Source of the DNA: Escherichia coli
GTDB taxonomy: Bacteria > Pseudomonadota > Gammaproteobacteria > Enterobacterales > Enterobacteriaceae
Length of the DNA stretch: 799 bases
Reading direction: 5' to 3' (one strand)
Assembly: GCF_003334815.1 (NCBI RefSeq)
Contig: NZ_QOWO01000118.1
Below, one piece after another: positions 1-799 of the stretch. The notes beneath the pieces are model-generated. The model did not search any database, was not told the origin of the DNA, and was given only the letters and a program-made list of their open reading frames with translations. The position numbers and the translations under genes are program-made. Positions within the stretch are counted from its first letter, which is position 1. Each line of letters starts with the position of its first letter.

Positions 1-799
1 TAGTTTCTGTCCATGGCTGCTTTTCGCATCTTACGTCTTAACCCTGCCTTGAATACCTTATCATTCGTCAAAATATTAATAGCAATGTGCCGTATCCCTG
101 AAAATAATTCTGCTGCATTTCCTCTTCTTATTTTGCAGTCGTCTTCATTCATTACCACGTCCAGACGCCAGTGCAGCTTATTCTCCACGTGCCAGTGGTT
201 TCGGATTGCTGTGGCGAACTTCTCTGCGGTTAAATCAGCAGAACTGATATAATATCTGACCGTCATTTCTAGCTCTTTCTTTTGTTCTGCTATTATGGAC
301 CGAAAGGAGACTGCCACGCATAATTTCTTCAGCCCTTTCCATTCAAACGTGAAATCAATAAGTTCATCAGGGACATCGCAAACAATATGAAGACGGATTT
401 CTTCTCTGCCGTGACTCTTTTCACTCATTGCGTAACTGTCATGCTCTGGATTATTTAATTCTTTCAGCGGAAATTTTTCCTCAAAGGCTTTATTTAGCCG
501 CCCCTGGTTTCCTTTTACCGCGAATAAATAATCACCTCCCTGTTTTTGTATCTTCTCTGCAATATCTTTCTGGCAACCCATCGCATCAGTTGTGATGATT
601 TTTCCTTTAATATCCAGCATGTTAAGAAGTTCTGGGATAGCTGTAATCTCATTAGATTTCTCATCCGTCTTGATCTGTCCGATGACCAGACTGTGCATTG
701 TTGAGAACGCACTAATGACATGAATCGCTCCCCTGCGGCGACTCTTGTCATAAGAGTGCCGGAGCGTTTTTCCATCAATTGCAATGACGTCTTTATCAT
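1..799 (-). CDS. ISAs1-family DDE transposase (H-repeat-associated protein, ISEc1-like); internal fragment, truncated by the window at both ends
   Basis: Seen in sequence: reverse-complement frame with codons at + coords 797..3 translates to 265 aa with no stop: [265 protein letters not shown]. Chance of 265 stop-free codons in random sequence is roughly (61/64)^265, about 3e-6. Established knowledge: the motifs [25 protein letters not shown] and [20 protein letters not shown] are characteristic of ISAs1-family transposases, including the E. coli H-repeat proteins (YhhI/YdcC/YbfD/YbfL type). This recognition is from memory, not a database search. Full-length family members are about 370-380 aa, so roughly 100 aa of N-terminus lie beyond position 799 and a short C-terminal tail lies beyond position 1. 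No gene symbol given because the near-identical paralogs cannot be told apart from this fragment. Confidence 0.93.
1..799 (-). mobile_element. Internal portion of an ISAs1-family insertion sequence (H-repeat / ISEc1-like); no element termini inside the window
   Basis: The window is entirely occupied by the transposase gene of this IS family. Established knowledge: these elements are about 1.2-1.3 kb with a single transposase ORF filling most of the element, so the inverted-repeat ends would lie outside this window. None were looked for or seen inside it. Confidence 0.85.

Follow-up and report, generated by a model that had tools for sequence, protein, structure and literature searches.

Members of the ISAs1 family of insertion sequences (IS) include IS1358 of Vibrio cholerae and IS1548 of Streptococcus agalactiae, and family members caught in the act of insertion are flanked by a 10-bp target duplication. 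ISAs1-family elements have an inverted repeat of 14 to 22 bp that starts with CAGGG (PMC11946415; an example is ISArsp11, PMC6305408), and the sizes described include 1,306 bp for ISArsp11 (PMC6305408) and 1,316 bp for IS1548 (PMC7096684). The H-repeat (H-rpt) elements have long been known from the Rhs loci of Escherichia coli, and according to the literature no transposition by them has been seen (PMC3032704). Mobilome sequencing of E. coli K-12 found several IS groups in which circular-DNA coverage is raised, and ISAs1 does not belong to them (bioRxiv 10.1101/2024.07.17.603846).

The stretch of E. coli DNA analyzed here (the window; 799 bp, 41.9% G+C) is almost certainly an internal piece of a 1,291-bp ISAs1-family IS, the Rhs-associated H-repeat of E. 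coli that is listed as ISEc1, and nothing was found that contradicts the ISAs1-family or ISEc1 identification. Its one real gene is in a minus-strand reading frame, 797..3, which in the reverse-complement translation of positions 3-797 contains 265 sense codons and no stops; the other five frames have 8, 19, 10, 16, and 28 stops. Given the base composition, a frame would lack stops over 265 codons with a probability of ∼8e-9, and in 20,000 shuffles of the window no frame was ever fully open. The preliminary description had singled out this frame, with neither start nor stop inside the window, and our translation agrees. It had also remarked that the ORF track reports two ORFs and misses this one, and the lister output is indeed as described: at a minimum of 60 aa the list consists of 13..252 (+, 79 aa) plus 515..799 (-, 94 aa) and nothing else, the 265-codon frame being absent because the lister omits ORFs that run off the source sequence. 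The lesson is a methodological one: in short windows, an ORF finder that requires both a start and a stop misses the real gene and reports alternative-frame ORFs, and annotation from the ORF track alone would here yield two false hypothetical proteins. Coordinates of the features discussed are collected in Table 1.

Table 1. Features of the 799-bp window, in window coordinates, with the basis for each assignment
Feature	Position	Strand	Basis
Internal IS segment, element positions 446-1244 of 1,291 bp; both inverted repeats lie outside the window	1..799	-	Placement on L001
Internal transposase coding sequence, residues 102-366 of a 378-aa ISAs1-family (ISEc1/H-repeat type) DDE transposase	3..797	-	Open frame, NF033564, DDE_Tnp_1, placement on L001 gene 5964-7100
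Catalytic domain Pfam DDE_Tnp_1, spanning residues 2-242 of the translated window	72..794	-	Pfam search
Codon GAT, D109 (AIDGK), candidate first catalytic Asp	774..776	-	Conserved in 7 of the 7 aligned ISAs1 transposases that cover the column
Codon GAT, D172 (ITTDAMGCQ), candidate second catalytic Asp	585..587	-	Invariant in the 8-sequence alignment
Codon GAG, E306, candidate catalytic Glu	183..185	-	Invariant in the 8-sequence alignment
Sole mismatch to the closest genome: A where that genome has G, which changes Pro 277 of the full protein to Leu	271		Alignment to L001
Spurious ORF of 79 aa on the strand opposite the transposase frame; the third codon positions of the two coincide	13..252	+	No NCBIfam or PHROG match; broken in the 77%-identical copy
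Spurious 94-aa ORF on the transposase strand, one frame shifted; the final three bases of the window form its ATG	515..799	-	No family match; five stops in the 77%-identical copy

The window translation matches the NCBIfam equivalog model NF033564, "ISAs1 family transposase," at an E value of 3.9e-92 (308.8 bits, with a curated cutoff of 70) in an alignment that spans profile positions 75-314 of 314, and this is the sole NCBIfam model matched by the fragment. Pfam DDE_Tnp_1 is matched at an E value of 4.6e-31, and these two matches, together with the annotation of the closest genomes, sustain the earlier proposal that the frame codes for an ISAs1-family IS transposase. Matches to both DDE_Tnp_1 and DDE_Tnp_1_assoc had been anticipated; the first was obtained, whereas the second is unobtainable from the window because that domain comprises residues 8-94 and the window begins at residue 102. 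The full-length relative with one mismatch to the window has DDE_Tnp_1_assoc (PF13808, residues 8-94) followed by DDE_Tnp_1 (PF01609, residues 102-343), which is the domain order of ISAs1 transposases, and the window alone has PF01609. The window thus holds the complete catalytic domain, none of the N-terminal DDE_Tnp_1_assoc, and all but the last 12 residues of the C terminus. This transposase is already known and is routinely annotated, and its biological significance is small.

Searches of other libraries give a few further observations. The PHROGs family phrog_16731 matches the fragment (3-797, -) at an E value of 5.6e-142 and is labelled "unknown function," such that a plain IS transposase goes unannotated in this phage-protein library. 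A reading as part of a defense system was rejected, as there is no PADLOC match, and so was a noncoding RNA in the window, for which there is no Rfam match at E values up to 1.

The inverted repeats and the element length were measured outside the window, in the closest genome (L001) and in six other copies, and from the closest genome, which has one mismatch in 799 nt, we infer the state of the window's copy beyond its own ends. In L001 the element lies at 7244..5954, is exactly 1,291 bp long, and has the ends CAGGGAAAGAT... and CAGGGCAAGAT...; the element reads CAGGGAAAGATCATG... through ...TAATCTTGCCCTG, and CAGGGAAAGATCA... and CAGGGCAAGATTA... are the ends in the closest genome as well as in the six other copies. 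It has a single transposase ORF at element positions 145-1281, which in L001 is the gene at 5964-7100 (1,137 nt, 378 aa), with an AAGGAG Shine-Dalgarno sequence upstream. Beyond window position 1, the stop codon is 37 nt away and the right IS end 47 nt, and beyond position 799 the start codon is 301 nt away and the left IS end 445 nt. An extension of about 400 bp on each side, which the preliminary description had expected to recover the gene and both IS ends, therefore falls short, as the gaps are asymmetric and 400 bp misses the left inverted repeat.

The inverted repeats of L001 begin with CAGGG and match at 10 of the first 11 bases and at 16 of 22, and over all seven full-length copies compared (L001, L002, L003, L004, L007, L008, and L009) the matches are 10 to 11 of the first 11 bases and 13 to 17 of 22. 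The exact seed is too short for the inverted-repeat finder; the terminal repeats were identified by inspection of the sequence and confirmed with a script. The seven copies are at different loci and their boundaries are identical, with similarity stopping exactly at CAGGG on both sides. The element thus has the CAGGG inverted repeats (14 to 22 bp expected) and, at 1,291 bp with one ORF, the 1.2- to 1.5-kb organization of the ISAs1 family. A promoter and terminator scan of the element gave nothing above the shuffled expectation. Exact flanking direct repeats of 4 to 12 bp are absent at all seven full-length copies, and the flanks differ between loci. The absence of target duplications is consistent either with old insertions followed by recombination or with a loss of mobility; it weakens the description "recently transposed" but not the family assignment, since such a duplication marks a recent insertion and is no requirement for placing the transposase in the family.

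The transposase contains the Asp, Asp, and Glu of the DDE (RNase-H-fold) superfamily, with all three codons inside the window. In an alignment of eight sequences from three phyla, which spans Gammaproteobacteria, Bacteroidota, and Cyanobacteria and in which the relatives are 40 to 51% identical and come from Aeromonas, Salinivibrio, Citrobacter, Chondrinema (Bacteroidota), and Fischerella (Cyanobacteria), conservation points to D109, D172, and E306 as the candidate catalytic triad. The predicted fold points the same way, and E306 is at the start of a long helix (residues 292-316) in the structure model. The AlphaFold model of the full protein has a pLDDT of 74.1 and a pTM of 0.67, with residues 114-151 below a pLDDT of 50. 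Four PDB fold matches are significant, all of them to Tn5 transposase or its inhibitor (E values of 7.5e-6 to 7.9e-4); these have a probability of 1.00 and a TMq of about 0.5 (0.53 for the one at 7.5e-6), and the next PDB matches have E values of at least 0.017. A search of PDB chains with the full-length protein sequence gave no match at E values up to 1. By predicted fold, the transposase is a Tn5-like DDE enzyme, in a model of moderate confidence.

The IS4 family carries the signature Y-(2)-R-(3)-E-(6)-K around the catalytic Glu. Membership of this family was considered for the window's transposase and rejected: an arginine, R300, is located six residues before E306 (R300-x5-E306), there is no Lys at +7, and only the ISAs1 NCBIfam model matches.

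In the mechanism that these features suggest, the N-terminal DDE_Tnp_1_assoc domain, which is presumed to be DNA binding, would bind the imperfect terminal inverted repeats that start with CAGGG. D109, D172, and E306, in a Tn5-like RNase-H-fold site, would then cut the element at its ends and move these ends into the target DNA. For H-rpt this transposition step is hypothetical, because there are no direct repeats at the seven copies and the literature states that no transposition has been observed (PMC3032704).

Related copies are extremely common, with megablast finding them in 5,342 of 5,426 complete E. coli genomes (∼98%). They occupy a median of 5 places per genome (range, 1 to 11), nearly all of them chromosomal, with 23 places on plasmids. 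The E. coli copies number roughly 22,900. None of the complete E. coli genomes has an exact match to the window; the best match is 99.9% identical and is annotated as "ISAs1-like element ISEc1 family transposase." In the closest genomes the matching stretch carries an annotation as ISAs1-like ISEc1/ISEc5 family transposase, and near-identical matches also bear the K-12 gene names yhhI and ydcC.

At eight of nine loci inspected, the element is immediately downstream (3') of Rhs, PAAR, or VgrG (type VI toxin) genes (L001 7100-9149; L002 7315-12799; L004 4381-6799; L005; L006; L007 5978-6799; L008 4317-6795; and L009 961-1227), and the copies closest to the window are located between nfrB and an Rhs/PAAR locus; by this precedent, nfrB would flank the window's copy at low coordinates and an Rhs/PAAR gene at high coordinates. 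The linkage also holds for L009, a 77%-identical copy carried by a conjugative IncFII plasmid of Enterobacter, and persists across genera and replicon types.

Three of these loci have further features of their own. On the minus strand of L001 (7227-7260), the PAAR/Rhs frame upstream, which has at least 100 open codons, enters the left inverted repeat by five codons and ends there at a TAA (…TWS|QGKIM*); in this genome the IS truncates the toxin gene and provides its stop codon. K-12 (L007 4186-5330) has a second ISAs1-family pseudogene immediately beside ydcC, between it and the rhsE remnant, which is only ∼67% identical, frameshifted, and interrupted by an internal stop. In the Enterobacter plasmid copy (L009 1464-2747) the open frame begins at a GTG and is limited to 302 aa, with the DDE_Tnp_1_assoc region disrupted and the part equivalent to the window intact, and this copy is probably a pseudogene.

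The transposase frame has a dN/dS of 0.06 to 0.16 relative to intact E. coli copies, which are 96.7 to 99.4% identical. In the more distant Enterobacter plasmid copy (77.1% DNA identity), all 265 codons are open, with 84.5% amino acid identity. NG86 dS is saturated for this pair, for which codon-position counts were used: the 183 substitutions fall 124, 38, and 21 at codon positions 3, 1, and 2, respectively (chi-square p = 2e-22). These sequence comparisons show purifying selection on the transposase frame.

Purifying selection and constant position are also what might be seen if the window's copy were not a selfish transposing IS but an immobile relic, or a domesticated transposase kept beside Rhs/PAAR/VgrG toxin loci because it serves the host, for instance, in the rearrangement or acquisition of toxin-immunity tips. 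This is unlikely, although several observations point in its direction: eight of nine loci directly 3' of Rhs/PAAR/VgrG genes, including the Enterobacter plasmid copy, the lack of target duplications in seven copies, the low dN/dS, the recurring positions in 98% of E. coli genomes, and the absence of ISAs1 from the K-12 circular-DNA IS groups noted above. However, the IS anatomy is complete, in that the CAGGG inverted repeats are intact, there is one transposase, and the boundaries are sharp, and the differing flanks, 1 to 11 copies per genome, and 23 plasmid places are as expected after movement. Active IS families also show purifying selection, and direct evidence of a host function was not obtained, with no PADLOC match. 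The broader proposal, that the H-repeat transposase is not a free-living IS but a domesticated or locus-bound enzyme serving Rhs/PAAR type VI toxin loci, for example, through the capture or exchange of orphan toxin-immunity tips, fits the near-universal presence, the purifying selection, the constant position 3' of Rhs/PAAR genes (also on the plasmid of another genus), the missing duplications, and the lack of observed transposition, but we consider it very improbable. If true, it would concern the H-repeat family as a whole and nothing particular to the window; the tie between H-repeats and the toxin loci is a side issue of mild interest, beyond the reach of the window.

An ISAs1-family IS with an intact transposase gene is the reading we prefer, and it is quite unlikely that the window's copy is instead a pseudogene, intact in these 799 bases but disrupted outside them. 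Many H-repeat copies are of this kind: annotations describe a frameshift or truncation in the related copies L005, L006, and L008 and in the second copy of L007, and the 77%-identical copy is open for 302 aa only. The window also has a unique Pro-to-Leu change, with Pro at residue 277 in all other close copies, including the 77%-identical one. Nonetheless, the closest relatives (99.4 to 99.9% identity) are intact 378-aa genes, and the window itself has 265 codons without a stop or a frameshift. Residue 277 falls in a segment that is variable among distant family members, and the change to Leu is therefore probably neutral.

The two ORFs that the track does list behave quite differently, and their earlier dismissal as alternative-frame artefacts holds, as neither has a family match in NCBIfam or PHROGs and both are broken in the 77%-identical Enterobacter copy. 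In that copy ORF 13..252 has its ATG changed to ATC and acquires an internal stop, and ORF 515..799 has five stops and 46% identity. An early tally of synonymous and nonsynonymous changes, which included pseudogene copies, gave no distinction between ORF 13..252 and the transposase frame because their third codon positions coincide, and it was the 77%-identical copy that resolved them. The same sharing of third positions with the transposase, itself under selection, accounts for the dN of 0 of ORF 13..252 relative to L003 and L004. This noncoding antisense ORF only looks conserved among close relatives, and it illustrates that dN/dS can be deceptive when two frames overlap in antisense. For ORF 515..799, comparison with L003 and L004 in its own frame gives a dN of 0.05 and a dS of 0. 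That one or both listed ORFs are real overlapping genes can thus be dismissed as wildly improbable, even though both are open in all close E. coli copies and ORF 13..252 shows no nonsynonymous change relative to two of them, given that selection on the transposase explains the low dN of the one, the other has a dN of 0.05 with no synonymous change, and the more distant copy interrupts both.

Among enzymes of known structure, the window's transposase resembles the Tn5 (IS50) transposase in being a DDE enzyme in which a beta-rich insertion (strands at residues 221-286 in the model) separates the second Asp from the Glu. However, the two proteins share only 9 to 12% sequence identity, the ISEc1 protein is ∼100 residues shorter, and it has a different N-terminal domain, DDE_Tnp_1_assoc. 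The likeness to ISAs1 and ISAs12 of Aeromonas extends to a common NCBIfam equivalog model, the two-domain architecture, a length of ∼1.3 kb, one ORF, and CAGGG inverted repeats (PMC11946415, PMC6305408, PMC7096684). The Aeromonas ISAs12, Salinivibrio, and Citrobacter members have 48 to 51% amino acid identity to the transposase. Unlike the ISAs1 family proper, the E. coli and Enterobacter copies examined are without the 10-bp target duplication, and H-rpt is tightly linked to Rhs/type VI secretion system toxin loci, its transposition never having been observed (PMC3032704). The closest described system is ISEc1/H-rpt itself, with the K-12 paralogues yhhI, ydcC, and ybfD, to which the window DNA is 99.4 to 99.9% identical. 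They have in common the 378-aa transposase, the 1,291-bp element with CAGGG ends, and a place just downstream of Rhs/PAAR loci, and they differ by one nucleotide, at window position 271, with Leu for Pro at residue 277. The best-matching copies adjoin nfrB, at the Rhs/PAAR locus between nfrB and cusS, rather than the K-12 ydcC locus.
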